Assembly (NCBI GenBank): GCA_964019425.1
Contig: OZ025789.1
Coordinates: 62,001-126,000 of the forward strand
Length of the DNA: 64,000 bases
Direction: 5' to 3'
Source of the DNA: Flectonema sp. DT1601
Taxonomy: Eukaryota
Positions 21,891-63,480 of the stretch are shown in pieces. The position numbers and the translations under genes are program-made. The stretch's first letter is position 1; every line of letters starts with the position of its first letter. Below the pieces are notes generated by a model. That model was not told the DNA's origin, did no database searches, and saw only the letters and a program-made list of their open reading frames with translations.

Positions 21891-24800
21891 CTACTTTTCA
21901 GGGCTGCGTACATCATCATCATCATCGTCATCGAGCATCTTCTTGTTTCCATCGTCCATTTCGAAATCATCGAACTTTCTCTCTTTCTTCTCCTGGTCGA
22001 GAGCAGCGTTCTCATTTCTGGATTTCATGAGCGAGTAGGCCAAGAAGACGATAAGTGCGATGACTAAGATCCACAATACTAAGATCAAAGCAGCTGGAAG
22101 GCAGGCTTCTCCAAGCTGCAGCCCTTCACAACAGGCTTCTCCAGCCGTCAGCAAGGTTGCGCCACGGGCACCCGCGTCGTCGTTGAATTCCTCGAGGACT
22201 TCCAACTGACCAATTCTGCTGCCCGCTCTGTCGTGAGTTTCGACAGGTGCCCACTTCTCTCCTTCCATTGCGTAGCATAAAGTGTACTCTCCTGAGATTT
22301 GAGCCGTCACGTTCATCATCAACTCCATTCCAACCTTCGGCTCAAGCATCGGGTTCGCAACCCCCGCGGCTTGGCAGGTTTCGGTAATCGTGATCTTGCT
22401 TCCCTCCGACACCATGCATCCCTGGTTGACAGTTGCCAAGCAGTCCTGGCCCTTCATCAGCGCAAGCTTTCCTGAATTCTTCTTCTTTTGCGAGAAGCAT
22501 CCGTGAACAATGACCGTGAACATCTCAGCCTTCACCGGTTTGTTCGGGTACGCCGTGTACCAGTACGCCCCACTTGGAGCACACATGCGAACACTGCAGT
22601 CCGCGCCCCCCCAGCCAGGATCACATGCGCACATGTTGTTTTCGCAGTCTCCCTTTCCGCTGCAGGTGGCATCCCGATCGCACACAACACAGCTTCCGTC
22701 AACTACCTTGAAGTCACACTGGTCGCAATTCTTTCCCGACATCCCCGCAGGGCATTCCTTGCAGGCTCCCGCTTGAGTGCAAGTTCCGTTCCAAGAACAC
22801 GACGCGTCTTCGACGCATGCAGTCTGGTTCAGGGCAGGGCAGCCTCCCACGACGCACTCGCTTCCGGTCCACTCGCACTTTCCATCAGAACGGACGTCAC
22901 ACGTCTCTTTGGTGCTCCATTCCGAGCAAGGGAGGCTGGTAACGCATCGGTTCACGTCCCACGTGCACCACTCCATCTGGTTGCAGCCCGCACGATCGCC
23001 GGCATCTTCGCACCCGTCGTTCTTTTTGCACGTCGCTTCTTCCCACTTGCATCCCTGGGTATCCTCGCAATCCGTTGCTTCGCCGATCATCGCGCATTTC
23101 TTTCCGCAGAGAGGCTGCTTCACCCCCGTCGGGAGGGCGGCACCCTCGAACCACTCACACTTATCGTCGGCGCCGCACTTCTTCATCTCCGAGTACATGA
23201 AGCACCCTTCTCCGTCTTTGCACATCACGTTTGGAGCGTCCCACTCGCACCGTGCCGCCGGAGCACGGAGCTTCTGGCAGATCGTCGCGTCCTTGTAGAT
23301 CGGACATCCAGTCTTATCCTTGCACACCCCAGCATCCCACTCACAGACCGCGTCTTCGATACACTTCGCCTCCTCCCCGGCGTACACCGCGCATCCCTTC
23401 GGATCTTCGCAGTGTGCCACCGTTCCGTTCGATCCGTCCACCCATACGCACAGCGCCGCCTCGCACTTCTGCCCCTCGTCCCAGACACCGCAGTCCTTCT
23501 CGATGCACACTCTGCTGCTGGCCGACCACGCGCAGTCGTCCTTCTGGGATAAGTCGCACTCGCTTTCCGTTGGGTACAGTCCGCATCCCTCCACGTCGTC
23601 GCACGTCGACGTCGCCGTGTTCCAAACGCATTCGCGACGGTCATCGCACGTTGGCTTCGTTCCGATCACGCCGCACTTCGACCGCTCTTCGCACGCCGGC
23701 TTCGCCGCGTTCCAAGAGCACGAGTGGTCGGCATTGCAGGATACCTCCTCCTCCAAAGCGTAGCATCCCACGTTGGGCTTGCACACCGCCGCCGACAACG
23801 TGCTTGTTTCCCAGCGACAAGATTCCGTGTCCGTCGTCGACTCGCACGCTCCCTGCGTCGCGAACTCGCACACCTGCTTCTGGCAGCTTTGGCTCCCCGC
23901 GTCCCATCCGCAGCGCTCCTCGGCTGCCGCACCCGCACACGCGTCTTCCGCGCAGAAGCTCGGGCACGCACTCCTCACGCACTCCGCTCCCGCCGCAGCC
24001 CACTTGCACAGGCTGTCTACCTCGCATCCAGCGGCACTCTCCCATTCTCCGCAAGATCCCTTGTGCAGCGGCTCCCCATGCTCCGACACGTAGTATCCGA
24101 ACGACGTAGCTTCATTGCACAACCCTGCGAAAACGTCCGCAAGCTCCGACATCTCGACAGACTCGAAGTGCGAGTCCACCGGCTCCGTCACCAGCGCCTT
24201 CATCGTCTCTGCATCCGACTCGCTTACCGCGCTCGGCCTCGAGAACCTCCTCACCTGGATTCCGAACACCGTCGCCCTCTGCGCCTCCAGCCTTCCGCGG
24301 GTTGCTTTCATCAGGTTCGCGTCTGGAATCGCCCCGTCCGCCACCACAATCACAACCTTCTTCCTGTCAGCCGGAGACTCGTCCAGCATCACGCTCGCCA
24401 TCTCCATCGCCTGCGACGCGTACGACTCCACAGTAGCGCTTCCCCTGAACTGATCTTCGTGCCAGTGAAGGTCGTCCACCAGCTGTGCCTCGCTTCCCGA
24501 CAACAATCCCTTAGTTCCCTCCGTCGACGTTCTCTTTGCCGCCCCGCTTGCCGAGAACTGTGCAAACCCGACCCTGAACCCGCTTGTCCGCAGCACCTTT
24601 GTGGCCGCCCCGCTTCCCTCTCCATCCGCGAGCGGCAACGTCTTCACCCAGTCCAGCAGCAGCTCGGTCACCGCCAGGAACCCGTGTGGGTGACGACCGA
24701 ACACCTCCGCCATGCTCGTCGATCCGTCCATCAATACCACCACGTCGACCGCCGGGCAGTTCGCGTACATCGACGCCATGCAGCTGTCATCCTTCCACAT

Positions 24801-51800: not shown

Positions 51801-54800
51801 CGCTGCCAATACCCGACCGGCAGGTCCAAGCTCATCCTTGTCCATGATCCTTCCATCGGTGATGATCAGCAGCACCTTCTGTCTATGCGCCGGTGATTCC
51901 TTGAAGATCTCACCTGCCCACTCCTCCGCCTCCTTCACCTTCGTCTTGCACCGGAGAGCTTCTCCCTCGTACCAGTCGAGGTCCCCAAGGAGCTGGCTCC
52001 TGTCACCGGTCAACTTTCCGCACGTGTCAGCCACAGCCGGAGTCGTTCCCGGAATGATACTCAGCGTTGGGATACCGTCTCCCTTCGTCACCCCATTCTT
52101 AGGATTGCATGAGCACGTAGGGCACTGCGCAACGCGAACTCCTGTGTCCCACGAGTTGAAGGCCACACGAAGCTTTCCTCCCTTGACGTCCGAGCTGATC
52201 CCCTTGGTCGAATCCTCGCCGGTCAGGGGAACCTTCTGTACCCAGTCCCTCATCACCTCCATCAGAGCATCAAACCCGCTAGGGTGACGCCCGAATGTCT
52301 TGTCCATCGAGCACGATGCGTCAAACGACACCACCACGTCGAGGTCGGGGCAGCTCGAGTACTTCTGATCCACACAAACTATAGGGCTCACCGACCTGTC
52401 GACGATGCAGCGAGGGTCCTCCGTGCACAGACACACCATGTCCTTAGCATCGAACAGCGCCGGTTTGTTGTAGTCACTGCACAACTTGTCCACGCATTTG
52501 TTCGCAGCATCATCCCACCTGCACAATCCCTTCTGGTCAGTGTTGCAGCTGTCCTTGCCCGTGTGCTTGTCGAAGCAGTACTTCTCCACACACAACCCAC
52601 ACCCAACAGCGTCCCAGTCACAGTCCGTGTCACGGCTGCACGTCACCTCGTCAGCGTGTTTGTAGCACTTCGTCTCAGCACAAGCCGCACCGTCCCAGTT
52701 GCACGCGGTATCCGCGAGGCACTCCGCCTGAATCGTCCCCGTGCAGCGCTTCTTGTGGCACAGCGGGTTCGCCCCGTCCCCCCACTCACATTCAGGATCC
52801 CGACTGTTCTCACATGAGCCCTGGTCGGTAAACTGACAAACCTTGTTGATGCACGAGTCGCTCACGCAGTCCCAGTCGCACAACCCGCTCGGGTCAGCCA
52901 AGCACTTCTGCTCATCCTTGGTCTGGGTGCAGTCCGGCACCGTCGGGTTGCAGGTGCCAGTCGAATAATCCCACTTGCACTTGTCGTCGGCGTTGCAGGG
53001 CCCAGGCGCGAAGTGTTGGCATTTCTTTGGATCACACTCTGCCGGCACCTTCGTTGTGTTCCAGTCGCACAGATCGTCCTGAACGCAATCCTGCTGCTTT
53101 GGGTACTCGCAAACCTCGCGCTGGCACTTGTCCTGGTCCCAGAAGCATCCAGTTGCCCTATCACACTCCGGCTTGAGGCAGTGCTTCTCGCATTCAGTCG
53201 TCACACACATTCCGTTCGCCGTGTTCCGCGCTCCCGCCGTGCAAGTCACCGACCCTCCGGCGAGCATGCAATTCTCGCAAACGAATCCGGAAGCCTTCTG
53301 CGTCGCCGAAAGCTCCAAGCAGTTCAGGTTCAGGCACCCATCGGCCGCAGCACACTTCTGGGGAACCTGGTCCTGCCAGTCGCATGCCTGGTCCGCACGG
53401 CACTCCAGCTTCACTCCCCACTTCGAACACGGGACAGAAGCACCGGTCGCCGGCGGTGTCGTTGAGCCTCCCCCCTGGTTCTGGTGCGCCTGGATTGCTG
53501 CCCCAAAGCGGCCAGCAGGGTCGCAGAAGTCCTTGAACACCTCCTCCAACATGTCGTCCAGCGGAACGTTCACAAAGTGGTCATCGTGCGGATCCGAAGT
53601 GATCGGCTTCAGGGTTTTTTCCGCATCCAAGTCATCCTTCGTGTGTGCAGCACTCTTGCGTACCACTACACCGAAAGTGATCACATCCATCGCATCCAAG
53701 TTCTGTCGGATCCGTGGGATCTCGACACTGCTCTGCGGCTCCTTCGGGTTCATCGCCCCGTCGGTGATGACGATCAGAACGTGCTGTCTGTGCGATGGCG
53801 ATCCCTGGAACACGTGCACTGCATCCTCCAACGCCTTTGCCATGTAGGTTACCGACCCCATGTAGTTCGTCTCGTGCCAGTCCAGGTCGACGTCCAGCTC
53901 GCTGAGTTTCCCACTGAGCTCTCCATCAGTGCACGTACCTTTGGGAACAGGATCCCTGCACTTCCTGCTCCGTGTGCACCCCTGGTTGTTGTTCTTGCAC
54001 ACCCAGTACTCGTCAGTTCTCGAGAACTGCACGAACGCGAGACGGAAGGTTCCTCCGACCACCGTCGATCCCTTCCCGACCGTGTGATCCTCCCCCGTCA
54101 GCGGAAGGGTCTGCATCCAGTCGCGCAGCATCTCCACCATTCCAAAGTATCCGTGAGGGTGCTTCCCAAAAGTTCCGCTCATCGAGCCAGATCCGTCCAG
54201 CACGAACACTACGTCCAGGTCGGGACAAGCCGACACGTGCACATCCCTGCACTTCGGGCTGGCCGTTGAATCCCAGTAGCAGTTCGGTTGCTTCGTGCAC
54301 TCGCAGTTCTTCAGGAAATCGCTGCACTTCGCCGTCTCACAGTAGTCTCCTTTGGAGTCTGTTCCCTTCTTGCAGTTCGGGTCGCTCTCGCAGCTATCCG
54401 CCACCTTGCTCGCAGGCGGGTAGTTCGCGTTGTGCGCCACCGTGCAAACCGTCGGTTGGCACGATGCAGGCGCCGTTGTGGTGTTCCAGTGGCAGCGCGG
54501 GTCGTGGTCACAACCAACAATGTCGTTTCCGAAGCTTGGGCAGTAGTCTGTCACGCACGGAGTCGTTCCGTCCCACACACAAAGCGGATCCTGGTTGCAA
54601 TTGTTCTGGTTCGTATGCACCTTGCACTTGTCTACTTCGCACTGATTGCTTTTGGTGTTCCACTTGCAGTTCTCGCACCCAGCTGCGTCGCAAGGCTGCT
54701 GGGCAGTGTACGAACACAGTTTCTCTGAACAAGCTCCGTTCTTCCATTCACAATTCGAGTCCACTCCGCAAGTCCCCGGGGTCGTGTACTGACACCGGCT

Positions 54801-57800
54801 GTCACGGCACTCAGTTGGCAACGAGCAGTTGTACACACACTGCGGGTCCGCGAGGCAGTCTGCTTGCGACTTCCCATCACACGTCGGGACCTGCAAGCAC
54901 ACAGGTGGGTCAACTCCCGTGTCCCACAAGCATTCCGTCTTGTTCAGGCACGCTTCTCTCACGAACACAGCGGCGCACGGCTTCTTCGAACAATCCCTAG
55001 TGTTGTCGTCCCACACGCACAGCGAGTCCGCGTCTCCCTCGCAGTTGGTCTTGTCGGTGTGCTCGCACACTTTCCTCGTGCACTCCTTCGGCGTTCCCGA
55101 CCACGCGCATGCAGGGTCCTTGTCACAGCAATCTTTCTCGCAGCAGTCCTTGCAGTGCGTCGTTCCGCAGGTCCCGTCGATCGCTGACACCACTCCAGCA
55201 CCGCAGATGACCGTTGCCCGCTGCAGCTTGCAGTTCGCACACCGGTACAGCCCCGTGTACTGGCTCGGAACCGCTTGGCAATTCAACTCAGGACATCCGG
55301 TCGGCGAGTCGCAAGTGCGGAGCTTCGGCTGCTTCCACTCACAGTACTTGTCGGCGTTGCACTCGTCTTTGAATCCCCATGTTGCGCATGGGAAGTGCGT
55401 GCTGTCCACAGGTGGGATGAGAGACCTTCCAATCGGACTCGACGGGTCGCAGAAGACGTTCAGCAGTTGGCTCGGAATCTCATCGAGCTGCAGGTTCAAG
55501 AAATGATCGTCCTTCGGGTCCGTAACCAGCGGCTTCAATCTCAGTTCCGCGTAGTCGTCCTGGTGGGTTCTCTTGGTGAACCTCCGCATAACCACACCAA
55601 ATACCACCACTTTCTCCCGACGGAGGTCCTGCTGCGCCTTGTTGAGCATCCCAGGGTAGGTCGGCTGCCAGTTCTGGTCGCATCCGAACGGACACTGGTT
55701 ACACGAGTTCCCGGAGCTGCACGCGTCTCCATTGATGTCCGTCAGCCCTCCATCGGCGATGATCACTACAATCTGCTTCCTGCCTGGCGGCGAAACCAAG
55801 AATGTGTGGTCGGCCACGTCCTGGAGTGCGTCGTGGATGTAGGTCCAGTGACGCTGGTAGTTCGCCTCGTGCCAGTCGATATCCCCCATCAGCTCCTGCA
55901 GGTTACCAGACAGCAAACCGTCAGTGCACTGCCCGATCGCGCAATTCGTCGGGTGGTCTTCATCGGGGCGAGCGTTCGCCTTCGAGAACTGGATGAATGT
56001 GATACGGAAGGTTCCTCCCTTCACACTCGATTGGGCCCCCACCGTGTGGTCCTCCCCCGTCAACGGCAAGGTCTTCACCCAGTCACGAAGCATCTCGAGA
56101 AGAGCGGTGTATCCGTGGGCGTGGCGTCCGAACGACCTCCACATCGATCCCGAACCGTCGATTATGAAGGCGACATCCAGGTCCGGGCACTGAGCCAGCG
56201 AAGGGATCGCGCAGTGCGGGTTTTTCGGGTCCGTAGCAACCCACGTGCAGTCGGGGTCCTCGCTACACTTACACTCGTCCTTCGGGTTGTTGTACTTGTC
56301 GCACGTCTTCACAGCACAGTACGCAGGGTTCGCCTTCGTTTGCCACATGCACTTGTCGTCGTTCAGGCACGCCGTGTTCGAGTATCCTCCGCACGGGGTT
56401 TGTGTGCACACCGGCGGAGTACCTGTCGTGTCCCAGTGACACGCCGTGTCCGCGTTACACGAAACGTCATCCGGATGCTTCACGCAAGGCCTCTCCACAC
56501 ATTTGTCCAGCGCCGTGTCCCATTCACACTTGCCGTCGGCATTGCAGGTCGGGGCACTCACGTACAGGCAGATCTTCTCCGCGCAGTACTCAATCAGCGT
56601 CGACGGAGGACCGGCTGGTGGAGGAGTCTGTACCGGAACCCACTCGCATCCGTCTTCGGCATTGCAGGTTCCCTCCTTGGTGTGCAGACACTTTTTCGGA
56701 TAGCACTTCGGGCTCTTGCTCGGGTCGTACTCGCACACGCTCAGGAAACAGTAGTCTGGATCCCCAGCTGGCGGGCTACACGGCGCCCCCATCTGAACCG
56801 ACACCGCTTCGCACGGCTGCTCGTCCTCGTGCACTCGGCAAGGGTTGTCGATGCACGTGTCCGTCGCCCACATCGCATCCCACAAGCAGTTGTCGTTAGC
56901 TTTGCAGTCCACCTGGTTCTTCCCAGTGCATCCCGGTTCCTCCCGCTTGCAGTTCCCGTTGTCCCACTTGCATCCTGGGTGGGCCTTGCAGTCAGTCTCT
57001 GAACACAAAGGGTAGCAATCTGACTGAGTGCACGACGGCGAGATCGAAGAATCCCACTTGCAGTCCAAGTCAGCCATACAATCCGTCTCGCTTCCCTTCG
57101 ACGCGCATCCTAACGGCACCGTCACCGTATTGACGGCAATTCCCCTTCCAAAAACGCTTTTCGGATCGCAAATCTGGTCCAGCACCTGTTCCTTGAAGTG
57201 GTCGAGGTCAACGTTGAGGAAGTGCTCATCCTGCGGGTCAGACACTAACGGCTTCAGCTTCGCCTCCGCCCGAAGGTCCTGTCTCGTGTGTCCGGTCGCT
57301 TTCCTCACAACGATACCGAAAATCTGCGCATTGTATTTCGTTTTCAAGTCGTCCTCCGCCGCCCGTACGTCGCTGTCCCGATCGTGTAGAGCCCCATCAG
57401 TGATGATCATCACAATCTTCTTCCTCGTCGAACCGTCGCGTCCGAAAATCGAATCCACCTCCCGCAACGCGGGTTCCAAGATCGTCTTCCCTTGACTCCA
57501 TCTCCTGCAGAAAAAGTTCTCGTGGAAGGTCACGTCCTTGGAAAGGGCGGCGTAGTTTCCGGACAAAGGAGCTCCTCCTCCAGTCGTTCCCGAAACAGGC
57601 ACCCAAGCCTTGCAGTTCACGAACCCGGCAGGCGGCGTGTCTTGCGCCGTCTGCGAATCCCCAGGCTTCCCGAACTGCACCATCGACGCGCGAATTCCGT
57701 ACGTAGAGGTCGACGACGGTGCCAACTCCGCCGCGTGCAGGAAGTCCCTCATCTCCTCCATCATTCCGTAAAACCCGACCGCGTGTGACCCGAACCTCGC

Positions 57801-59294
57801 GCTCATCGAACCAGACCCGTCGAGCAGGAAGGCGATGTCCACAGGCGGACACTGAACCTTCGGGTCCACACAGTGGGTGTTCGCTGAATCCCAAACACAG
57901 TCAGGTGACGCAGCCAAACAGTCGCACTTGTCGGCGATGTCGCTGCACTCGCGCTTCTGGCACTGCGTCCCAGCCGCGTTGTTCGCGTTCCAGTAGCAAG
58001 GTCCGAGGCTGTCCGCGTTGCATGCGTCCTTCGCCTTGTGCGTCGTCGGACAGTACGCGTCCACACACTCCGCCGGCGATTTCGTCAGGTCCCAGTCACA
58101 GAGCAGGTTCGTTTCACAGCTTCCCTCGTTGTCGTACACGTGGCACCCGTCCTCCACGCACTCCGCAGGGTTCTTGCTGTCGTCCCACTTGCACGATCCC
58201 GCTGGCTGGTGGGCATCACACGCACCGATGTTGTTATACACATGGCACCCGGCAATCAGTACCTGGGTTCCGAACACGTCATCCGGGTTCATGCACAGGT
58301 CTCCAACTCCTCCCCACTCGCAAACGAATCCCTCGATGTGGTCGTGTCCGTTCGGGTAGTCGTTCCACTTACCGCTGGCGTAGTAGTGTCCGTAGTCTTC
58401 TCCGGTGGTATCGCAAGTTCCCGGACACGGTCTCGAGTATTCGTTCGGTTCTCCAGATTGCCAGTTTGTGTACGCACCGTTCGCAACCACGAATCCAGAT
58501 CCTCTTCCCCTTCCGATCAGCTGACCCTTCCCACAGTCTACCCCGCTGCACGGTGTCTTAGATCCGGGAAGCGGGTATCCGAGGTCGCACGCCGAACGCT
58601 GCGGTCCAGTCACCCCAAGGTTGTACGGTGGGCAACCCTCTGGTCCAGTCAGCCACCTCCATTCTCCCTCCTTCGCAACGTCACCGCTTCCGATCCATCC
58701 CTCCCCGTGAAGCTTCTCAGAGGCAACCCTTTCTTCCTGCGCGTCGGTGATGGTCACCAGGTAACCCACCAACCCGAGGATGTCCTGGCTCTCCAAAGCG
58801 CACTCCGCTTGTCCCTGGTCCCAGTGGCATTTTCCGGACCTCCCTTGGCTGTCCCGGCAGTTCCCCTTGGCGCTCGAGTAGTATTCGTAGAAGTGTCCGG
58901 TTACCGTCGAGTACATCGCATGTCCGAAGTTGTAAGTCACACGTCGGGAAGCCCCATTTCCCGATGATGTCCTAAACTGAATTGACGATAAGGCCGCGGC
59001 ATATTCGGCGATCGTAGCTGACCCAGAGAGAGTCATGATACCAGTGCTCACATCAAAGTTAGCGCTGATTCCTCCAGTGCACGCGGTGCACGTCAAGGTG
59101 TCGGCTCCCCTAACGTATCCCTCCTCAATGTCCATCACAGCTCCAGAGATCGAGGTGCTACAATCACATGTGGCAGATGTGAATGTAATTTGACTGCAAT
59201 CGACATCAGGGAAAGGTGTCATTAGCACTCCCTGTTCATATTTCAATCCACTGCTCACTCCCAACAGTCCTAACAACGCAATGAGCTGCCTCAT
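21891..59294 (-). CDS. Giant (~12,467 aa) single-exon type I membrane/surface protein: 19 vWA domains, 3 C-type lectin modules, Cys-rich CxW and EGF-like repeats, C-terminal TM helix (complete copy, 'copy 2')
   Basis: Uninterrupted 37.4-kb ORF. The track starts it at TTG 59312; the first ATG is at 59294 and gives a signal-like MRQLIALLGLLGVSSG. TAG stop at 21891-21893. Repeated CPxLDxxxxxDGSGS...IITDG vWA motifs, EPN/WND lectin motifs, and a hydrophobic LPAALILVLWILVIALIVFLAYSLM segment near the C-terminus. Confidence 0.95.
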   Translation of the reverse strand: MRQLIALLGLLGVSSGLKYEQGVLMTPFPDVDCSQITFTSATCDCSTSISGAVMDIEEGYVRGADTLTCTACTGGISANFDVSTGIMTLSGSATIAEYAAALSSIQFRTSSGNGASRRVTYNFGHAMYSTVTGHFYEYYSSAKGNCRDSQGRSGKCHWDQGQAECALESQDILGLVGYLVTITDAQEERVASEKLHGEGWIGSGDVAKEGEWRWLTGPEGCPPYNLGVTGPQRSACDLGYPLPGSKTPCSGVDCGKGQLIGRGRGSGFVVANGAYTNWQSGEPNEYSRPCPGTCDTTGEDYGHYYASGKWNDYPNGHDHIEGFVCEWGGVGDLCMNPDDVFGTQVLIAGCHVYNNIGACDAHQPAGSCKWDDSKNPAECVEDGCHVYDNEGSCETNLLCDWDLTKSPAECVDAYCPTTHKAKDACNADSLGPCYWNANNAAGTQCQKRECSDIADKCDCLAASPDCVWDSANTHCVDPKVQCPPVDIAFLLDGSGSMSARFGSHAVGFYGMMEEMRDFLHAAELAPSSTSTYGIRASMVQFGKPGDSQTAQDTPPAGFVNCKAWVPVSGTTGGGAPLSGNYAALSKDVTFHENFFCRRWSQGKTILEPALREVDSIFGRDGSTRKKIVMIITDGALHDRDSDVRAAEDDLKTKYNAQIFGIVVRKATGHTRQDLRAEAKLKPLVSDPQDEHFLNVDLDHFKEQVLDQICDPKSVFGRGIAVNTVTVPLGCASKGSETDCMADLDCKWDSSISPSCTQSDCYPLCSETDCKAHPGCKWDNGNCKREEPGCTGKNQVDCKANDNCLWDAMWATDTCIDNPCRVHEDEQPCEAVSVQMGAPCSPPAGDPDYCFLSVCEYDPSKSPKCYPKKCLHTKEGTCNAEDGCEWVPVQTPPPAGPPSTLIEYCAEKICLYVSAPTCNADGKCEWDTALDKCVERPCVKHPDDVSCNADTACHWDTTGTPPVCTQTPCGGYSNTACLNDDKCMWQTKANPAYCAVKTCDKYNNPKDECKCSEDPDCTWVATDPKNPHCAIPSLAQCPDLDVAFIIDGSGSMWRSFGRHAHGYTALLEMLRDWVKTLPLTGEDHTVGAQSSVKGGTFRITFIQFSKANARPDEDHPTNCAIGQCTDGLLSGNLQELMGDIDWHEANYQRHWTYIHDALQDVADHTFLVSPPGRKQIVVIIADGGLTDINGDACSSGNSCNQCPFGCDQNWQPTYPGMLNKAQQDLRREKVVVFGVVMRRFTKRTHQDDYAELRLKPLVTDPKDDHFLNLQLDEIPSQLLNVFCDPSSPIGRSLIPPVDSTHFPCATWGFKDECNADKYCEWKQPKLRTCDSPTGCPELNCQAVPSQYTGLYRCANCKLQRATVICGAGVVSAIDGTCGTTHCKDCCEKDCCDKDPACAWSGTPKECTRKVCEHTDKTNCEGDADSLCVWDDNTRDCSKKPCAAVFVREACLNKTECLWDTGVDPPVCLQVPTCDGKSQADCLADPQCVYNCSLPTECRDSRCQYTTPGTCGVDSNCEWKNGACSEKLCSYTAQQPCDAAGCENCKWNTKSNQCEVDKCKVHTNQNNCNQDPLCVWDGTTPCVTDYCPSFGNDIVGCDHDPRCHWNTTTAPASCQPTVCTVAHNANYPPASKVADSCESDPNCKKGTDSKGDYCETAKCSDFLKNCECTKQPNCYWDSTASPKCRDVHVSACPDLDVVFVLDGSGSMSGTFGKHPHGYFGMVEMLRDWMQTLPLTGEDHTVGKGSTVVGGTFRLAFVQFSRTDEYWVCKNNNQGCTRSRKCRDPVPKGTCTDGELSGKLSELDVDLDWHETNYMGSVTYMAKALEDAVHVFQGSPSHRQHVLIVITDGAMNPKEPQSSVEIPRIRQNLDAMDVITFGVVVRKSAAHTKDDLDAEKTLKPITSDPHDDHFVNVPLDDMLEEVFKDFCDPAGRFGAAIQAHQNQGGGSTTPPATGASVPCSKWGVKLECRADQACDWQDQVPQKCAAADGCLNLNCLELSATQKASGFVCENCMLAGGSVTCTAGARNTANGMCVTTECEKHCLKPECDRATGCFWDQDKCQREVCEYPKQQDCVQDDLCDWNTTKVPAECDPKKCQHFAPGPCNADDKCKWDYSTGTCNPTVPDCTQTKDEQKCLADPSGLCDWDCVSDSCINKVCQFTDQGSCENSRDPECEWGDGANPLCHKKRCTGTIQAECLADTACNWDGAACAETKCYKHADEVTCSRDTDCDWDAVGCGLCVEKYCFDKHTGKDSCNTDQKGLCRWDDAANKCVDKLCSDYNKPALFDAKDMVCLCTEDPRCIVDRSVSPIVCVDQKYSSCPDLDVVVSFDASCSMDKTFGRHPSGFDALMEVMRDWVQKVPLTGEDSTKGISSDVKGGKLRVAFNSWDTGVRVAQCPTCSCNPKNGVTKGDGIPTLSIIPGTTPAVADTCGKLTGDRSQLLGDLDWYEGEALRCKTKVKEAEEWAGEIFKESPAHRQKVLLIITDGRIMDKDELGPAGRVLAAEGVKVFGILLRRRASATARDMANLVTLKEIVSNPKETHALSLQVDEALSIMDGFCDPNSPFGTYITQGSSTPQVTTCSQIGALVSCDAEKTCQWNSISLKCEDHPCFSHCEEKNCTTDPTNKCLWSATSECEKAVCKDFQNQPDCKSNKCQWDQAKDPACFEPECDATTEDACVNLGEKCMWDTSLRPPDCVKTPCYYNKTECVADPACTWDDVCADPVDQKCVPKRCTLDSHKNQAGCQADIYCVWSQQLSCEPAPCVNYPDEKCCDHDDSCHWDVSQAPAVCKQKYCPSTYPTTAHVDPCNGDGLCMWNSTTNECVDKVCNKMEECACKKDPDCFWSGVKCADKKYGECPVMDIILLLDGSGSMSRNFGRHPHGFYALVEILRDWVKTLPLTGEPAASPTPGGPLTGGVRLGFVQFSGKNRGWPWPWSRGSSNAIETRGNTGTGGHLSGLESEINDDLDWHENNYLGKGTMIQLGLEMVGDMFDRSHKVSSRKRILIIVTDGKIYDPDVLAPARQVLNQEQVQTFGIVLRRQSGHTKADTDAEKTLKPITSDPHDDHFQNLQIDEVASQVFADICDPNGVWGHLIVSSTNAPGQSGLHKPCDHYTDTHDCTQDAGCVWDTASTACADSPCTAHCDNPTCTADTVNLCAWNSTTGDCWKKTECAYTTIAECVKSPEKCVWDNVKDPKCQKEKCTPNTNIQDCLDDPDSCEWINVRGKDQCVEKKCRHPDKTTCETDPNCAWSADACNGTRSSCKEVLCKHTNAGECTADSRCSWDATGVVGSCKENLCAKYLDERCCDHKDACKWDITVTPPVCGDKKCPKIGVKDTCNNETDCMWDNSKRTCRDLDCSKYPTRCPCDKNSKCYWKPGAGLNGQGQCVAIEFGECPTLDIGVILDGSGSMASTFGSHPHGFYALVEMMRDWVGKLPLNGEDASVGLNSAANNGGVRVAFVQFSGKNYRRSQAKTASGARTTNGRLSGVLGELDADLDFHENNYYKKGTMIEKALVMAGDIFHGSPVDGRQRVLFIFTDGRIYDEQSLAPARAELDREGVQTFGIVVRKKDQHTKADLDAEKTLKPITSDPHDEHFRNIMIDDIPDLIGSICDPNGPWGHLIAKDPPKPTTGVHHPCPDYVTETPCSQDAGCVWSDVGGLCVNSPCLMHCLEPDCRNDKGNNCTWNSQNATCSKAEDPTCPCKFVTNDPQYNEQQCNADARCTWESNKCIYDECKTKGVGCTAVGQSCSDPNKDPCSPDDYVCDCIPPTTIFPSGAQPSQLPANCRLDECVATCPTCANDTCTSVGQTCNDPNPTMTHHSDWTCTCPPPSTGKATAAAADCKIDECVVQQDTCKNQTCLDPNMNAASKGDWMCICPPPSNKTNVGGRADCKVDECTLHGDICANVGQRCVDPNFNQQGDWKCECLPPTNGTMTAGPAICLLDECEKDCPTCEKDVCKTATTGEQKCHDPDKTASSTGDWTCECIPPMTGLGHAAPAHCNIDECLKVCATCANDTCSSQNQTCHDPNHDATSLSDWVCKCPPPATDIAIAAAATPCEDDECHDPKNEKVCTAAGQVCVDDDKKTRGTWECVCVVPPAVAAVRGQQVPAHCEYPGECNTDDDAKKKCTDLGFVCDDPNPMVDGNWVCMCAPPAIGTNVTLGTPTDCLLDECVVTCPTCAQTDTSPTNVCSAEGQLCVDNKQSHTDLGDWTCECVPPQVGTPAVAAPAKCQLDECVAVCSTCAQTQQGGSHTCTSVGQTCEDPNKSVDSVSDWMCTCVDPGRGVATAKQADCVCDECRNNTICLVAGQTCFDSVKTCPPQKDFKCECPPPTSGVMTGAPVATCEVDECVENGATCRAVGQTCRDPNAAKLHDWECMCPPPSVGIAITQQAKCVLDECVQTCPTCAGSTCSDAGQECEDPKMTLQSTNDWLCKCPPPSSNVATGKPAKCEEDECDTNGFKCTVDCRAGSLDCQQTCFDPNTSVNSTDDWRCVCPPPSSDFSIAKAAECTNDPCKHDNEQTCLSDPEGCEWKDLPTPGCSRKPCLHDKQSDCAADPMCDWSSGSGAVGNLANQMTYEKDVAVKPFEGLTCQTPGSWKNGCSCTTTIGSNVLPGATVDIEDGYLSGKDTLTCVACKSLGLTAEWHAVSGMLTISTGTADELAKAVASIEFSTSADNSGKRRITWNYGHGFYSSHTGSFYHFYPKSTCAGGACTWSDAQEQCASDSNQILGLRGYLITITSEVEDEVARMKLEGQGWMGASDVGEEGTWSWVTGPEGAAGGCQYSSTSSSCNLASEKGLPFGSGTGGNFAPAVDPNTGRDMYGNWANNEPNDFRGPCPGSCVKDGEDFGHFLWPSGEWNDYPGDHQRIDGYICEWGGIGEMCADVSDATGVTDLVAGVCVEKACVNDTETDCKANPKCSWVGGNVEPCVVAPCVEIPNEKECDKDPVCHWDVTVSPSLCTEKICNKNKDPTTCNVKDDCVWDDGANRCVDKVCDPFERCDCKAEPKCFWDTSSGSGKCVENRYGQCPTLDVVLLLDGSGSMSQNFGRHPNGFYAMMEMIRDWVKTLPLTGESHQVGANSTAPNGGMRMGVIQFSGIPISGGTAVDKAAIKSPIGVGSFGSLTGKLTELQSDIDYHEANYLQAGTYINQGLGWAGDMFRASPAGRKRVLIIITDGAIKDDDKLASARATLNQESVEVFGVVLRRQATHTSVDTLAEEKLKPITSDPHDDHFENLMIDELPTTVLNGLCDPNSKWGALLLPGAAAQNQSGVHKPCPQYVDQVLCTADAGCVFSSIGLECVDSPCVEHCNETRCTADTLNDCYWNASVAGLEGCWKNPLCSYQDDVTCEKDQKCDWNQTKRDCEERICNQQTEAECDLDPNGCEWDGLQQMCVEKPCKHTNSSACNSDALCEWDGCDGVTDGAQCIKKRCAAAPGAPALTEQACNSDQHCEWKSNACGLKQCTVHSDERCCDKDSSCHWDVSLTPAQCSVKHCATMNQDKPACNTDPLCTFNDSSTECVDKVCKDLDRCDCLAETKCFWNSLAPTPFCTETKFGQCPTLDLVLLLDGSGSMSAPFGRHPHGFYGLMEMLRDWMKTLPLNGEKADVGLNSAANTGEVRVGLIQFSGKNKNGPSSGRADAKGTPPGTGTETRLSGDFDELSADVDWHEANYYSRGTMIQKGLQMSADMFHQSPNDGRQRVLIIITDGRIYDPNTLQQARSELDTEQVKVFGVVVRRSAQHTKADLDAEETLKPITSNPHDAHFQNLQIDEVPEKVLGDICDPNGVFGSLVLGQAAQQGSGGANPASGGVHQPCPQHLRQAGCLADPGCVWFDNSLSCGDSPCLHHCEEKNCTADAANGCMWANGTICVREPKTGCEIYTGKPEDCKKQKDCQVDKDGSTCVDKKCNRDNEQGCLADPDDCVWNNLNQECTETPCKETEEGPCVASQDGCVWQTTIPLNSTVSAYARGQPMVPFPTVSCTVSGKCSCSDTVKGAAVDVEEGYVKGKDVLACDQCAGLGFEAEWHDVPGVLYLKSTTAKTMAEYAAAIATVTFTTTSDAGSPRKITWNYGHGFLSSATGHYYHYFSKTECQNVDPTASECHWGQAQAECESADNMILGLRGYLITITSEEEDQVAKMKLEGQGWMGAADKNDEGRWGWVVGPEGLDGGCTYAADQSGCDLTSQVGLVIGSGSGGSFVAATDANTGKPMYTNWEAGEPNNYKGACPGSCATEGENYAHFRWPSGEWNDFPGDHQRIDGYICEWGGVGELCVDPKDASGRVEVTAGTCVEEKCKADRKDPCVADPYCEWKDNNNNTNSTGCVQKKCTEYMTEIQCDRIEDCHWNPSISPAMCVEKPCAKLRDEPTCEADSDCAWDKDRTKCIEKDCNKLEKCDCVEDEKCYWKALASQPQQGSCVKVTYGECPTLDVVMILDGSGSMSQNFGRHPHGFYALMEMVRDWVKTLPLSGEKAVVGSNSGAGSEKLRVALVQFSGHPEHFTFGDIVNSVAFPPVGVGAGGRLTGDLAELSADVDWHEANYLEAGTYIEKALVRAGSIFKSSSPVDGRKRVLIIITDGKIQDDDKLAQAKNDLDGMDVQTFGIVVRRTNQLTQNDIDAETSLKPITSDPHDDHFLNLMIDEVPDKALNGICDPNGPWGHLIVDQAAIAAQTQAQQAGVHRPCPNYGNKVPCSSDVGCKWSDVLIACLDSPCVKHCTQEQCANSTGDCNWNSTVLECFNKEVCPGISDPNACDQNDKCSWNATGNKCIDTPCLHPDEPSCIADSTFDCTWDTVNGSCIETRCTQVDKTSCNQEAGCEWDEACGEGTCVGVPCQHADETECSKDVLCQWSQQSLTCSRKACAVYPDEKCCNHKDGCHWDVQQAPAVCAELPCRKFGEQVACSDERDCMWKDNKCVEKDCGEFEKCECDADPDCFFSISDGGSHCTFQRYATCPTLDVVLLIDGGASMSRAFGRHPNGFYALVEVVRDWAATLPLSGEAAGTTSMPQTKAMRLAMVQFAGSSQWPSSDEKQALSSPPGTGSGGRLSGVLSEVEADADFHEGNFMGESAAAQPDLKQTYLLGGLQKAVSLFQTSPFDGRKRVLIIVADGELNDKDSYTAARAALDQAQVHVFGIALRPFSTVSTDDVKTQQTLSGALSDPKDQHLQSLQVDEVASALKGLCDPNHAWGKFIADTSDGVACTLYASKDPCNKDDGCVWFDRTLSCGDSPCLAHCKQDNCTSADADNHCVWNQTLGACRKEELCNHPDTVECEKDDKCEVDPADKKTCIGKICDHDNQQGCLADPKGPCVWNESGKDCSKQPCVYFEPVFCNNDTECTWNRDADLCETIKCRWGQQVECEEKDGGICEWKNNACTFKPCKEHPDEKTCGKDDLCSWGTDCEVKYCKRYGEPGACDQDGECMWLNNTCVEKNCGEFEVCRCRKDGDCYWDKGTCKTSKFGECPTLDIVLVVDGSGSMSQSFGVHPHGFYGLMEMLKTWVQSLSLSGVPAGGSPLLDGKARVGFVQFSGIPTNKLPNGNVDAAQTTPAQIGTSGRLTGLRTELDAELEWQETNYMQGGTYIASALDTAADMFKESPGSLRKKVLLVFTDGEIKDVDRLKDARGRLENAGVVTFGVVVRRFLAHTAVDLDAENSLRPITSEPHVDHYLNLMLSEIPDALDGLCDPNSLWGKYVVDPQSQAGVHKPCRNYVDKTKCDSDPGCLYQEVLTACVDTPCIRHCEESECNGDQGNHCEWNSQEQVCYKKEICPHTTPQACNQDAMCAWNVTAGTGGECGEKPCLHPDENSCLADTEFECTWQTGSRECVLTPCQYPDSTTCGADSGCKWDNSCPDEECVVKPCEGAGSDAACTADSRCQWNGSCSAKVCSEYAGEQCCNAVDGCHWDVQQSPALCAQLPCRKFDQNGCKGEDECMWSDAKLTCVEKDCGVMDKCQCEGDADCFFSSTAVSSHCTFQRYGTCPTLDIVLLLDGGASMSRAFGRHPNGFYALVEVVKDWAATLPLSKEAAGQPSVANTKAIRLALVQFAGSSKWTSDDPRQATFSPPGTGSGGHLTGSLSEVRADAEYHMGAFLGGSLVTQPTTQQTYLLAGLEKAVSLFRASPVDGRRRVLIIVSDGELHDKDAYGQAMSELDQAQVRIFGAVIRPFGTRTAIDLRAEETLKQIVSSPASAHFQNILVDELATALNGICEPQHVWGRYVADVSEEVLPCPTVAEKDPCNKQSHCVWFDETLSCGDSPCLKHCKQDNCTADWPNQCQWKSGGCVKEEVCKHPTAARCLQDEKCEVADDGKTCIGKKCEHDNEQGCLADPDPCEWNNLAQTCGKRPCTYDAVATCEQDLNCTWNLDADYCELKKCSPYTEKGDCLTKPAAGLCEWVKQIGGNSLCETAPCKQYSSEKECNGDVICEWDTSIAPGTCNEKYCRRHCTKRGCNQATCKADAKCMTEGNSCVTKVCDKLSSDPCECHNDPDCFWIPSEQACVDTRYGTCPTLDLVVLFDGSGSMSNAFGRHPHGYFAEVEMLKSWVQGLPLSGEAAGTPSTVNRKTRVAFIQFSGVPQDSGSPVTGPIPGSALKTPSNTGTAGRLSGDAGELLADLSWHEANYMAQGTYIRAGLDMAAGIFQDSPLDGRRRALFIITDGAIQDKNLLASAQAKLSSQQVEVFGIVVRRFATHTQLDADAEETLKPITSDPHADHFVNVDMDELADVNGPLTKMCDPATGWGSGLAMQPVGGQHQPCRKYEGKTSCMSDRGCVWSETLLGCVNSPCVVHCSEAMCDGDVTNGCVGGWNELEKTCYRKEVCGGDNVVTCESEEGCEWNATATDCGEKRCHHKTEDSCLADTEAVCMWKDPTTCVLMPCVNHEARQECESDTEKSCMWTGDKTCVQKKCVYTAEVDCRSDALCDWQTSNLTCTVRPCVEYTEDKSCDADRRCHWDTSTSPGSCQLERCAKYPEQAMCEADSGCLWEKDLCVEKTCHKIPERCGCQQDPSCFWSNTGGRGRCEEQAYGKCPTLDVALVLDGSGSMSQSFGRHPHGFYAMMEMIRDWVKTLPLSGEDSAVGSNSVPSGGVRVGLVQFSGLAGSTGPTGGVVNSAQRTPPGVGANGRLSGDLAQLQADIEWHEDNYMKQLTFIEEGLVMASNMFAQDSPVDGRRKIIIIITDGVLMDGDKLSGVRSTLKQQQVLVFGIAVRRFSARTQGDIDAEAALKPVVSAPADEHFLSLMLDEVPTEVLTGLCDPASKWGRYVAGGGSGSIGLPAGAVPCEQFPSKGTCNQEKGCAWGDSAQVCGNTPCFQHCDDGPCTDDKENHCEWNGTESVCWKSKLCAHPDETSCAQDDECAWRNNTCAEKPCVHADEDACLADPEGCVYDSLLLTCSLEPCKTLKTEDGCSTEKEICEWDKHGLICKPKRCVSCGGNSTCCVEDESNKQWCEMNTTSNVCQEKPCVGYADEVSCHEDLVCEWDSAVAPGKCKEKFCSQYGESVSCNNEPACHWDFSTCSDKKCGDYAKDLTNTDEVHCACNSNPECFWHDNVCVDVHYGACPTMDIVVLFDGSASMANQFGRHPRGYAALLEMLRDWSLLLPLANDYGRADRNGTGYPVGLTRISFIQFSGNENKKVNGVVRGSSLSTPLSGVNGAAGGRLSGYMPELTVDLDWQEKNFMGGGSFLAESFDTAAGLLAGAPNDGRKKVVMVIIDGKIEDGDQTALAKSKLDAIGVHTVGIVIRKSQSHTAGDLEAEASLRPLVTEPQETHFTNLMIDELQENVFDKWCNPGTPWGRWLVNLGTTDSHLPCDFHHNSAECNRDSGCQWDDSLVRCANTPCLQLCSEKLCMSAEESLLCEYDAKDHACGKKKVCAAANANDCGSDPECWWSTTKDRCEPRPCQHITETACVSDTEEECVWVEDKCSLKKCSYNVSADCLADVECTWDQVASVCSEKPCQYVVMDLCVGDKQCKWESNKCVERPCAQHLDESSCHTDVGCKWDVDSSPAYCTETYCARWKAESDCDGDAACAWDSQQRGCVESRCDRFNGNQCACQEEAGCFWSGASDECVTSVFGACPPLDVAVVFDGSGSMSQAFGRHPHGYEALTTFLKEWVKKLPLNGDSYTAKEQTKATGMRVGFVQFSTPGAPRTTAGMVGTANGLLSGNLSELEKDIEYHNKNQMADRTFVEGALEHAVEIFRASPPTRKRVLILITDGKLNDADMLKAVRGSLDALSVQTFGVVIRRLDTRTQEDIDAEFALKPVVSLPTDEHFLNLKLDDVVTEVFEAICDPTKKFGALIAMREGAAHQPCAVYESAGSCLDDTWCVWSESLLGCVNTPCLSYGCSESECNAATSDFCGWTNGKSCERQPACPKHASPQLCDADTANACRWNGSTCQVRKCNHQAEDSCVTDPEGCEWATDDMVCTKTECTYTEEAKCTQAAAAEGCQWKAEEKLCVKDRCQSATCEANPWCCECAAHADEVTCNHDDKCHWSVDDAPSMCKVKYCSRFSEQGSCSTDPQQRCSWDSVDGECADKNCTKIGEPCPCNKDLGCFWDGSKKECVTGQFGGCPLMDVVIAMDSTTSMQGAFDRHPNGYYAMVEKIRDWVKGIPLSGTLGKAFKESPAQGVRVGVVQFAAEAGAIKSPQGVGSAGHVTGDLDELLKDLDFHEKNIVGTERAYIKSALDLTKGMLGSVTRKRILLVLTDSELKDAATTATVQNLRTLLGMQVQTFGLLLRPTTAFDASSSTAREALKMITSTVQDEHFADATIDELDSILWALCDPHKQFGALIAKSATGSGSASTPCPNHLEKDACDTDLSCRWSDRLLSCADSGCLAHCDNATCAEDHANLCSWIDGSCFKQPICSHADVSECLIDPGCDWNANKVKCEKKKCQHESESGCVEDLVGCEWESAHDACVERPCTYTSQDACGVDAKCTWDSKIRGTMAWGPCVLIPCQASDEAGCLADGKKCEWSTGTPECVPKKCTPYPDEMTCDHDDACHWNTEESPPGCTQKYCSKHAEQAACKTDSEKCKWSGQGCVELKCSDLKDGCSCKAVDRCTWDAKRSACLEGAFGGCPVMDIAVVFDGSGSMSQAFGRHPHGFYAMVEQLRDWVKTLPLSLESAGTMDPQAGGLRVGFIQFSAPKSAVRAPAGTGTGGRFSGVVAELSADLDFHEQAYAMESTYISQALDFAANLFQSSPAGRRKVLLIVTDGKIHDAAELNSARAALGGQGVEVFGVVLRRFKAHSEVDLEAEAVLSGIVSEPKADHYVNIPLDDFSREVLVDICNPNSKFGKIILNYQSLEGHHLPCGSFVTEKACYREAACKWNATQLACEWSMCHDECDEGSCNGAAGCVWDATFGECGRVVECSASEKLACEAMKYTVTDEGCRWYEGDSVCGPPPCTATTEDNCVADPYGCQFDEEAADKSKCVEKMCNAPDPVTCDGKDTCQWDLVIGSCVEKPCVPYKTEDVCGKHSYDCEWKGNTCTPLECVPYTNERDCAADASCEWKTAHAPAHCGVKVCRVNEDKPSCEGVESCVWDEAQRTCDEGVSQCKRFSKSCECGKTSGCMWKDDSCMASMYANCPAVDVVVLMDGSTSMAEVFGRHPHGFLAVTELLLDWVKTLPLADGEGSGAATKVLRTSGFRVGFAQFSASGAAKRTSTEGTKGLLSGSEAQLVDDLHWHEDQFRGSATVESYASQAMEMASVMLDESPADRKKVVIVVADGAIPDANLMKATRGRLEAQRATVFGIQVRRFSRPSAVSESDAETMKALVTEPVDSHFESVEMSELADVFAGLCNEATSFGYYVSEHGEPLHKGSCGEWESAAGCEVDSLCKWAAAGAECVRSACPSFCAEDACAGAAAEERCGWDAGSQSCQKQVCEFATQGACESTTDTESCRWETSTLSAAVCKPNVGCYALEEEVSCNADHSCSWNAAKPACEERSKCGVIGTKPTCDDRRECVWNTATSTCDDVEGCGLYPTESECDLSQKDDCAWSASSRVCIEKDCGVWDEGQKCEAALCVWVDGSNGTVAHCEDPKGCAVYAGEEAKCIEDAVCEWDAGVCKDKTGCPIYKDATICQKLRAPAARCEWDAPNVMCKDGEGCFMYSEMKKCGADDKCEWFEGAALPTGVKQPLCGKKCAMIGEATDCEDTQGCKWEEATCKKNDGCEDAGDRAGCNQMEWCTWDVNRCVTSLPCSEWSTKETCDVRSDGKCEWTGSECVVGGCPALNQTACVEDASCSWNGTCTQAGACKECPAGMSGKNCDQCDFKVVDGSCVVCDRDATCSGKGDCENNMCACDPGWGGADCSVRMCAPSGAYWYTAYPNKPVKAEMFTVIVHGCFSQKKKNSGKLALMKGQDCLATVNQGCMVSEGSKITITETCQAAGVANPMLEPKVGMELMMNVTAQISGEYTLCYAMEGEKWAPVETHDRAGSRIGQLEVLEEFNDDAGARGATLLTAGEACCEGLQLGEACLPAALILVLWILVIALIVFLAYSLMKSRNENAALDQEKKERKFDDFEMDDGNKKMLDDDDDDDVRSPEK
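22026..22103 (-). other. Single transmembrane helix followed by a 44-aa acidic cytoplasmic tail
   Basis: CLPAALILVLWILVIALIVFLAYSLM, then KSR (positive-inside) and a tail ending MLDDDDDDDVRSPEK*. Confidence 0.88.
22590..24060 (-). other. Membrane-proximal stalk: CxW repeat array followed by laminin/tenascin-type EGF motifs
   Basis: Tandem C..y.....C.....C.W......C units, then CPAGMSGKNCDQC and CSGKGDCENNMCACDPGWGGADC. Confidence 0.75.
24116..40115 (-). other. vWA domains 9-19 with ~1.5-kb periodicity (starts near 40115, 38545, 37030, 35495, 33930, 32378, 30797, 29255, 27786, 26273, 24758)
   Basis: Eleven consecutive units of vWA (~220 aa) + Cys-rich CxW linker (~290 aa). MIDAS variants: DGGAS (10, 12), DGSAS (15), DSTTS (17), DGSTS (19). 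Confidence 0.9.
40580..41460 (-). other. Lectin module 3 (copy 1 equivalent 1805-2685)
   Basis: RKITWNYG...GHYYHYF...GYLITITS...EGRWGWVVGPEG...YTNWEAGEPNN...GEWND...GYICEWGG. Confidence 0.85.
42025..44275 (-). other. vWA domains 7-8, lying between lectin modules 2 and 3
   Basis: CPTLDVVLLLDGSGSMSQNFGRHPNG and CPTLDLVLLLDGSGSMSAPFGRHPHG. Confidence 0.9.
44721..45600 (-). other. Lectin module 2 (copy 1 equivalent 5946-6825)
   Basis: RRITWNYG...GYLITITS...GWMG...EGTWSWVTGPEG...YGNWANNEPND...GEWND...GYICEWGG. Confidence 0.85.
45815..48140 (-). other. Array of ~14 EGF-like Cys-rich repeats, consensus DEC...C...GQ.C.DP......DW.C.CPPP..G......C (copy 1 equivalent 7040-9365)
   Basis: Counted 13 DEC starts plus one PGEC variant, spaced about 45-60 aa apart. 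Confidence 0.75.
48495..57845 (-). other. vWA domains 1-6 with CxW linkers (domain starts near 57845, 56185, 54225, 52350, 50750, 49145)
   Basis: Each has D-hydrophobic strand-DxSxS (DGSGS; DASCS in domain 4), a xxQFS-like strand, a hydrophobic strand ending TDG/ADG, and a FGxV/I strand. Confidence 0.9.
58308..59220 (-). other. Lectin module 1: beta-rich Ig/cadherin-like domain + C-type lectin domain (copy 1 equivalent 19533-20445)
   Basis: GIMTLSGSATIAEYAAALSSIQF...RRVTYNFG, then GHFYEYY, GYLVTITD, GWIG, EGEWRWLTGPEG, YTNWQSGEPN, GEDYGH, GKWND, GFVCEWGG. Confidence 0.85.
59247..59294 (-). other. Signal peptide of the giant protein
   Basis: MRQLIALLGLLGVSSG: basic N-region, hydrophobic core, small residues at the likely cleavage site. 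Confidence 0.8.
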
Positions 59295-63312: not shown

Positions 63313-63480
63313 GTCAGATATTTCGAATTAACGATTCTGGTAACAAAACTACATTTTGCATGAAGGACGTTCTCCACACAAAACCCATTGTTTTGTTTCT
63401 TTTATTTTTGTGGATTTGTTTGTTTTTCTTCTTCTTTTTGTTTTGGTGATGAAATTTGCTAAATAGGTAGGGAACAGAAT

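Follow-up and report, generated by a model that had tools for sequence, protein, structure and literature searches.

An intronless 37-kb gene of Flectonema encodes the longest member found of a conserved euglenozoan family of predicted surface proteins with lectin modules and von Willebrand factor A domains

The apicomplexan proteins TRAP, CTRP and MIC2 are type I membrane proteins with a short tail and one to six von Willebrand factor A (vWA) domains bearing a metal ion-dependent adhesion site (MIDAS), and they are defined by thrombospondin type 1 repeats beside the vWA domains and by an acidic tail with a sub-terminal Trp. Collagen VI and the matrilins are defined by a collagen helix or a matrilin coiled coil, and the surface antigens of ciliates are glycosylphosphatidylinositol-anchored, with no cytoplasmic tail and without vWA and lectin domains. 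Here we describe a gene, copy A, on the reverse strand of a 64,000-nucleotide stretch of Flectonema sp. DT1601 (contig OZ025789.1, positions 62,001 to 126,000; hereafter the window). It encodes the longest member that we found of an undescribed, conserved euglenozoan surface-protein family made of known domains.

Other described systems share single elements or a setting with this family; statements on published work here and below refer to excerpts of the cited papers. Nematode proteins pair a vWA domain with a C-type lectin domain, as in the 45-kDa, two-domain Hc-CLEC-160 (PMC6054721). Bodonin and DGF-1 are multi-copy surface proteins of kinetoplastids for which attachment to prey and substrate has been proposed, and bodonin has about seven transmembrane (TM) helices and a Ser/Thr/Asn-rich ectodomain (14.8/10.4/5.6%) (PMC4728078). 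A glycocalyx and a coat of hairs cover the apex, flagellar pocket and flagella of diplonemids, whose cells use one flagellum for attachment (PMC5845003). The apex has also been described as bearing hairs, and cells as gliding on their anterior tip (PMC10653844), and a fine hair coat is also found on the feeding apparatus (PMC5845003, PMC10653844). The excerpts of the diplonemid literature that we searched name no protein for sticking to prey or surfaces or for the composition of the hair coat. An earlier sequence-only reading of the window knew of no described family with 19 vWA and three C-type lectin domains, and our literature searches, which covered journals outside subscription, likewise found no paper describing this lectin-vWA family. 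The main text of the Diplonema papillatum genome paper, as excerpted, is without the terms 'lectin', 'adhes' and 'willebrand', and its supplements may list these genes.

Gene structure and domain order of copy A

Copy A is a giant open reading frame (ORF) at 21891..59294 (-) that encodes 12,467 aa, is intronless and has a single terminal stop. This bears out the sequence-only reading, which had proposed one 37.4-kb exon of about 12,467 aa and a mass of roughly 1.3–1.4 MDa; the computed mass is 1,350,035 Da (1.35 MDa). The other five frames of the coding sequence (CDS) contain 65–424 stops, the longest stop-free run in 20 trials with a base-shuffled CDS was at most 272 codons, and there are zero N across the window. 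GC content of the CDS is 0.77 at third codon positions and never falls below 0.42 over 100-nt windows, against about 40% in the intergenic gap, so we find no intron-like stretch. From its N-terminus the protein runs through a signal-peptide-like start, a lectin module, six vWA domains, a block of repeats resembling epidermal growth factor (EGF) domains, a second lectin module, two vWA domains, a third lectin module, 11 vWA domains, a Cys-rich stalk, an EGF-type region, a TM helix and a tail, which is the order given beforehand.

There are 19 vWA domains in blocks of 6+2+11, the same count and blocks as first proposed, with pairwise identities of 27–65%, and Pfam VWA was above its cut-off in all six pieces (6/6) of the protein. 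The first block, vWA1–6 with Cys-rich linkers, occupies 48495..57851 (-); its domains start at aa 482, 1036, 1690, 2315, 2849 and 3384 (vWA1 57168-57851, vWA2 55449-56189, vWA3 53523-54227, vWA4 51636-52352, vWA5 50070-50750, vWA6 48495-49145, all (-)), and the MIDAS is canonical in 6/6. The second block, at 42027..44276 (-), consists of vWA7 (43611-44276) and vWA8 (42027-42695), starting at aa 5007 and 5534, with their linker. The third, vWA9–19 with linkers of about 290 aa at 24117..40115 (-), has starts at aa 6394, 6917, 7422, 7934, 8456, 8973, 9500, 10014, 10504, 11008 and 11513. Canonical MIDAS motifs (DxSxS..T..D) are present in 14/19 domains; the non-canonical ones all lie in the third block, with Ser for Thr in vWA15 and vWA19 and degenerate motifs in vWA10, 12 and 17.

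Structure prediction of a repeat unit, a check that the earlier reading had proposed, returned an integrin I-domain-type fold. The AlphaFold model of one linker plus vWA8 had a predicted local distance difference test score (pLDDT) of 84.9 and a predicted template modelling score (pTM) of 0.74, and its vWA8 matched integrin I-domains with Z 20.2 and a root-mean-square deviation (rmsd) of 2.8 over 177 aligned residues (another integrin I-domain match had E 2.6e-09). The MIDAS Thr and Asp align with those of integrin alpha-1.

Each vWA block is preceded by one lectin module, and the second lectin module is itself preceded by the 14 EGF-like repeats. The signal-peptide-like N-terminus (aa 1-16, 59247..59294 (-)) was read from the sequence, and 11 relatives have a similar start. 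Lectin module 1 (aa 17-349, 58248..59246 (-)) is, like the other two, a C-type lectin domain inside a beta-rich carrier; modules 2 and 3 lie at 44655..45629 (-) and 40515..41477 (-). The calcium site 2 residues EPN..E..WND are kept in 3/3 modules, as the sequence-only reading had claimed for its three EPN/WND C-type lectins, and the module matched PDB profiles down to E 1.3e-16. Pfam Lectin_C was above cut-off in only 1/3 modules and at E 0.003 or better in 3/3. The AlphaFold model of module 1 (pLDDT 94.4, pTM 0.92) matches the C-type lectin fold with Z 14.5 and rmsd 2.0 over 121 aligned residues. In this model, the carrier domain consists of six strands, a helix and a further strand that returns after the lectin domain, which is inserted ahead of that last strand. 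Fold lists for the module were occupied by the lectin part and gave no fold label, such as a cadherin/Ig-like beta-sandwich, for the carrier, for which the ESM Atlas returned leads under 0.9 only (DUF5416).

Relatives in diplonemids and the age of the array

With the first 1,184 residues of the mature protein as query, 3,132 proteins were returned at E 0.001. Among the best 150 of these 3,132, our own profiles find both the vWA type and the lectin module in 32, and another 79 are Cys-poor, have no vWA domain and match via the carrier or lectin part. A species was named for 14 of the 30 hits looked up (one via a cluster member), of which 13 are diplonemid and one is prokinetoplastid. The diplonemid relatives are from Flectonema neradi, Diplonema papillatum, D. 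ambulator, Rhynchopus euleeides, R. humris, Namystynia karyoxenos and Artemidia motanka, the last two of which we take to be diplonemids; the prokinetoplastid sharing modules is Apiculatamorpha spiralis. The sequence-only reading had considered the architecture unlike any described family that it knew; the architecture is not a lone one, as copy A is the longest found member of a diplonemid-wide family with shorter euglenozoan relatives.

The vWA domains of several relatives correspond by position to those of copy A. In a D. papillatum protein (P0030), 8/8 vWA domains find their best match in vWA9-16, in order, and the same holds for P0024 (10/10, vWA1-10), P0025 (6/6, vWA1-6), P0037 (4/4, vWA8-11) and P0039 of F. 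neradi (4/4, vWA16-19). Transcripts of F. neradi match aa 3588-4763 of copy A at 84% and aa 10118-12460 at 75%, by which the window most likely belongs to a diplonemid close to Flectonema. A vWA tree (FastTree, 117 domains from 22 chosen proteins, 211 columns) placed domains from other proteins as sisters of 17/19 copy A domains; vWA8 groups with vWA6 and vWA12 with vWA10. The ordered match of D. papillatum to vWA9-16 argues that the vWA array is old. Recent repeat expansion of the array was also considered, and is ruled out by the 27–65% identities together with positional orthology. Overlapping transcript-derived (Trinity-named) pieces from four species tile aa 720-12460, and the array thus appears to be transcribed in relatives, as overlapping pieces of up to 6,951 aa.

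Several observations weigh against strict conservation of the full array. The best-match order holds only in part for R. euleeides, R. humris and Namystynia, support is below 0.2 for 3 of the 17 sister groupings, the EGF block is absent from P0024, and the third lectin module is followed by nine vWA domains in R. euleeides compared with 11 in copy A. Additionally, no relative spans the full length; the longest is 7,575 aa, and the longest transcript-derived one is the 6,951-aa piece. The lack of any relative above 7,575 aa would also fit a 37-kb ORF created in the assembly by fusion of repeats or of several shorter genes, as would a 99.96% identical 20.7-kb duplicate in the region. We consider such a fusion extremely improbable: the vWA domains are only 27–65% identical to each other and so are not collapsed or expanded copies, and overlapping relatives from other species span all the block junctions with the order unchanged.

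The duplicate is a second copy (B) at 1..20731 (-), comprising the 5' leader and the first 6,839 codons (ORF 3-20519), which runs off the window. Bases 1-20731 repeat 38776-59506, including 212 nt of leader before the ATG, and within the CDS the two copies differ at seven bases and four residues. The 3' flank of copy A (21134-21649) is 91% like 63432-63976, DNA upstream of an esterase gene, and there are hints that an older third copy of the giant gene could end just right of the window. At a relative locus (L001:269-12676), two family genes stand in tandem, and the upstream one has its 3' part in common with the gene in L002. The repeated 3' flank and the tandem genes at L001 both fit a real array, and copy B may be either a genuine tandem gene or a haplotype or assembly duplicate.

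The esterase gene, a carboxylesterase at 59778-62954 (-) with Pfam COesterase in both halves, adjoins copy A and is apparently interrupted by an intron of about 1.5 kb holding 276 AAAAC units. The best canonical GT-AG guess runs from 62129 to 60654 and yields 566 aa, with 12 alternative open joins. Since this neighbor appears to be intron-split, the genome likely has cis-introns, and the absence of introns would be a property of the giant gene. A pyrimidine tract ending in AG at 59423..59451 (-), 128 nt before the ATG of copy A, is a candidate trans-splice acceptor.

Related proteins also occur in shorter and rearranged forms. A paralogous subfamily has 5–6 vWA domains and 2–4 lectin modules. 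For the D. papillatum paralogue P0029 (KAJ9442392.1; 4,686 aa, five vWA domains, four lectin modules, TM helix), the NCBI label 'Halomucin' looks like an automatic name and does not describe its domains. P0074 of Diplonema ambulator joins a CAP domain to one vWA domain and a lectin module, and P0040 (5,132 aa) is a compact array of 19 matches to the copy A vWA type with mostly very short linkers and decayed MIDAS. In P0041, P0062 and P0073 (6,100–7,600 aa), one lectin module and a set of four or five vWA domains are followed by 3,600–4,800 aa consisting purely of CxW repeats. In P0026, P0171 and P0043, 44–59 EGF-like repeats follow one to four vWA2-like domains, so that the modules are shuffled into other giant proteins.

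Outside these, a group of about 2,700-aa proteins from environmental assemblies mostly combines two each of the lectin module and vWA domain with a TM helix. Five of eight fetched contigs of this group begin with a spliced-leader-like sequence (three flagged by script, two read by eye as beginning inside the motif), which we take to be the 3' end of the euglenozoan spliced leader, so these contigs would be full-length euglenozoan mRNAs. The group is likely kinetoplastid, as the module tree places its lectin modules close to Apiculatamorpha. The gene beside one such relative (L006) has a partial 40% oomycete match as its best named match, which is of no taxonomic use. The same carrier and lectin module is found in 15 Cys-poor proteins, two of which, when scanned, had bacterial surface domains (sortase, bacterial Ig or OmpA-like). 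When one Cys-poor relative was scanned against prokaryote genomes, nothing matched. The Cys-poor modules form their own clade (support 0.99), which in an unrooted tree indicates kinship but no direction of gene transfer. P0003 and P0004 carry the same module on a multi-pass membrane C-terminus, and P0003, with a weak DGF-1_C match, is bodonin-like with a lectin head.

Binding sites, anchoring and proposed function

We lean, by a modest degree, towards reading copy A as a diplonemid single-pass membrane protein of an old family that likely forms a long, disulfide-braced fibre gripping prey or surfaces through its lectin and metal-site vWA domains. The hydrophobic N-terminus, 1,026 Cys (8.2%), 66 N-glycan sequons and one TM helix would be expected of a secreted protein with type I anchoring. 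Its roughly 200 helix-plus-hairpin modules would act as spacers with one vWA bead every ~520 residues, giving a reach of perhaps 0.2–0.5 micrometre, as estimated from typical module sizes. Of the lectin domains, one would sit at the tip and two halfway along, and they would bind mannose/GlcNAc/glucose/fucose-type sugars on prey or substrate, a prediction made because the EPN rule is known from animal C-type lectins. The vWA domains with intact MIDAS may add metal-dependent binding to acidic ligands, and hence avidity, with the decayed ones being structural. The fibre would be displayed in the glycocalyx and hairs that cover the apex, flagella and feeding apparatus, the sites at which diplonemids meet substrate and prey. 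The type I topology and surface or adhesive role put forward from the letters of the window are supported by the PDB matches, the predicted domain folds and the single TM helix.

Conservation of the binding sites weighs against this reading. Canonical MIDAS motifs, counted without domains that have a gap at a motif column, are present in 7/10 vWA domains of P0024 and 12/14 of the paralogous subfamily, but in only 1/8 of D. papillatum, 3/11 of R. euleeides, 1/5 of R. humris, 3/7 of Namystynia, 1/3 of F. neradi and 0/30 of the 2,700-aa group. The full lectin motif was found in 17/43 scored modules of Cys-rich proteins; a number of orthologous modules have lost it, including the two of P0172. These losses suggest that ligand binding is not uniformly kept. 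The proposal that the vWA domains all bind protein ligands via metal is weakened by these counts, against 14/19 canonical sites in copy A, and with the MIDAS decayed across several orthologues, the role of many of these domains may be structural. Architecture appears to be better kept than binding chemistry, and this is the main point against a pure multivalent adhesin.

The same pattern favors a chiefly structural protein, the backbone of fine non-tubular hairs or a coat on apex and flagella, in which vWA domains serve as beads or in self-association and capture is secondary. The order of the domains and the number of Cys in the linkers persist as the MIDAS decays, and the vWA10 position retains a non-canonical Gly in P0024, P0030, P0037 and P0172. 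Hairs are described in diplonemids (PMC5845003, PMC10653844) as well as in a prokinetoplastid (PMC7859406), environmental data yield assembled full-length mRNAs of relatives, and the Chlamydomonas mastigoneme provides a precedent for a single membrane-anchored core protein (PMC11015965). However, a purely structural protein would not need the MIDAS intact in most domains of copy A and of the paralogous subfamily, nor the lectin sites intact in 3/3 modules here, and the literature passages on diplonemids give no hair length for comparison. We think a chiefly structural role doubtful, although it ranks first among the alternatives to a gripping fibre, followed by an uptake receptor, a shed mucilage and an assembly fusion, in that order. 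A related and speculative suggestion, which we also hold only tentatively, is that the family forms the body of the fine non-tubular hairs borne by euglenozoan flagella and feeding apparatus, with one membrane-anchored chain per hair, a length set by the gene and, at the tip, a lectin module of a kind that bacterial giant adhesins also have. If true, chain length per gene would be about 2,700 aa in some euglenozoans and 12,500 aa in diplonemids, and no fibre for attachment or prey capture would have been named in diplonemids before this one.

For the fibre that we favor, the linkers would be the main spacing material. Those between vWA domains are mostly ~290 aa with 38–40 Cys, and over the whole protein linkers total 6,136 residues with 802 Cys, equivalent to ~200 four-cysteine modules of 31 aa, each a short helix and hairpin in the model of linker plus vWA8. 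An ESM Atlas search with the linker gave no usable match, a search against phage genomes gave no match, and NCBIfam gave no name for any of the five copy A pieces scanned. We note that the fold lists were filled by vWA and lectin matches, so the linker and carrier folds are unassigned, which does not imply that they are new. Between the first vWA block and the second lectin module, 14 EGF-like Cys repeats of ~50–60 aa each span aa 3722-4494 (45813..48131 (-)). This agrees with the claim of about 14 such repeats by Cys pattern, on which the EGF-like label rests because the block has no Pfam EGF match, and neither Pfam nor NCBIfam gave it a family name. After vWA19 come a membrane-proximal stalk of four-cysteine CxW modules (22785..24116 (-)) and an EGF-type region (22590..22784 (-)), which matched Pfam EGF_Teneurin at E 5.3e-05, just under its cut-off. 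A juxtamembrane domain of ~155 aa (22125..22589 (-)) is kept in diplonemid relatives and is without a family name.

The single TM helix (~aa 12400-12422, 22029..22097 (-)) has a Kyte-Doolittle peak of 3.29, and the segment at aa 12391-12427 is the only one above 1.6, in agreement with the EGF and TM order proposed for this end. Attachment could also be achieved if the protein were shed or cleaved to form a mucilage coat that glues sessile cells to one another and to surfaces. Sessile Diplonema cells have a mucilaginous coat mediating attachment (PMC5845003), and the fold neighbors include vWA-rich matrix proteins such as collagen VI and PTMP1 of mussels. We regard shedding as very unlikely, given that the TM helix and tail are retained in full-length diplonemid relatives and that the linkers are Cys-rich rather than mucin-like (Ser+Thr 13%). 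Additionally, Flectonema, the nearest named relative, is without a dispersal swimming stage in the descriptions excerpted.

The 45-aa cytoplasmic tail (21894..22028 (-)) is acidic in copy A, as the sequence-only reading had stated, and its poly-Asp end is not kept in F. neradi. What is common to the diplonemid relatives is a [FY]xx-hydrophobic motif 15–20 residues after the membrane (FDDF in copy A, YDGF in R. euleeides, YADV in Namystynia, YEDL in Artemidia), which resembles clathrin-adaptor sorting signals. This could point to a giant receptor in the cytopharynx or flagellar pocket that takes up food particles or polysaccharides as multiple ligands, mannose receptor- or megalin-like and internalised via its tail. 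D. papillatum imports prey polysaccharides (PMC10161547), and hair-coated vesicles bud at the flagellar pocket (PMC10653844). We find a receptor of this kind distinctly unlikely, as the size is extreme for a cycling receptor, Phe stands in copy A and F. neradi where the canonical motif has Tyr, the 2,700-aa group has a different tail, and four-residue motifs arise by chance.

Comparison with known systems

By its parts, copy A would work in the manner of adhesins of the TRAP/CTRP type or of bacterial giant adhesins, but it does not belong with TRAP, bodonin, the ciliate surface antigens or collagen VI. The vWA domains of TRAP and MIC2 are fold neighbors of those of copy A (Z 16–18). However, thrombospondin repeats had no Pfam match over the whole copy A protein at E 0.01, its tail is acidic but without the Trp, and it has 19 vWA domains, three lectin modules and belongs to another lineage. 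Integrin alpha-1 was the best PDB sequence match of the repeat unit (E 5.9e-10), and in collagen VI vWA domains are also strung in series, but likeness to integrin alpha I-domains, collagen VI and matrilins is at the domain level only, with 14–24% identity. A collagen helix, matrilin coiled coil and beta-propeller had no Pfam match in the protein, which differs from collagen VI and the matrilins in being membrane-anchored and in having its vWA domains spaced by ~290-aa Cys-rich linkers.

The lectin domains have the same predicted fold and calcium-site motifs as animal C-type lectins. In contrast to Hc-CLEC-160, the lectin domain of copy A sits in a carrier otherwise seen in Cys-poor bacterial-type repeat proteins. 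Bacterial giant adhesins likewise have carrier-domain repeats with an inserted C-type lectin, but are without the copy A vWA type and the Cys-rich linkers. A bacterial origin of the lectin module by horizontal transfer was considered and is not claimed, the module tree being unrooted.

Among protist surface proteins, bodonin differs from copy A, which has one TM helix, Ser/Thr/Asn contents of 6.8/6.7/4.0% and a Cys-rich vWA array. Paramecium surface antigens have similar periodic Cys/Trp repeats, and Pfam PF01508 was above its cut-off in 1/3 linker regions (28.3 vs 21.2 bits), with weak or no match in the other two, but copy A has a TM helix followed by a 45-aa charged tail. The likeness to MST1/MST3 of the Chlamydomonas mastigoneme, a ciliary hair on one membrane-anchored core protein, is by analogy (PMC11015965); these have hydroxyproline helices and a PKD2-like channel, neither of which is seen in copy A (Pro 5.3%, one TM helix).

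The case illustrates how such genes escape notice: the relatives found are all at most 7,575 aa, many of them partial, and one D. papillatum paralogue bears a name that looks unrelated. The giant gene, with an orthologue in D. papillatum, is a concrete, conserved candidate for diplonemid attachment or the hair coat. None of the named domains is new, and neither is the broad concept of a surface adhesin with many vWA domains; what is unusual is a vWA array of megadalton size that is free of introns and in which the domains hold the same positions from genus to genus.

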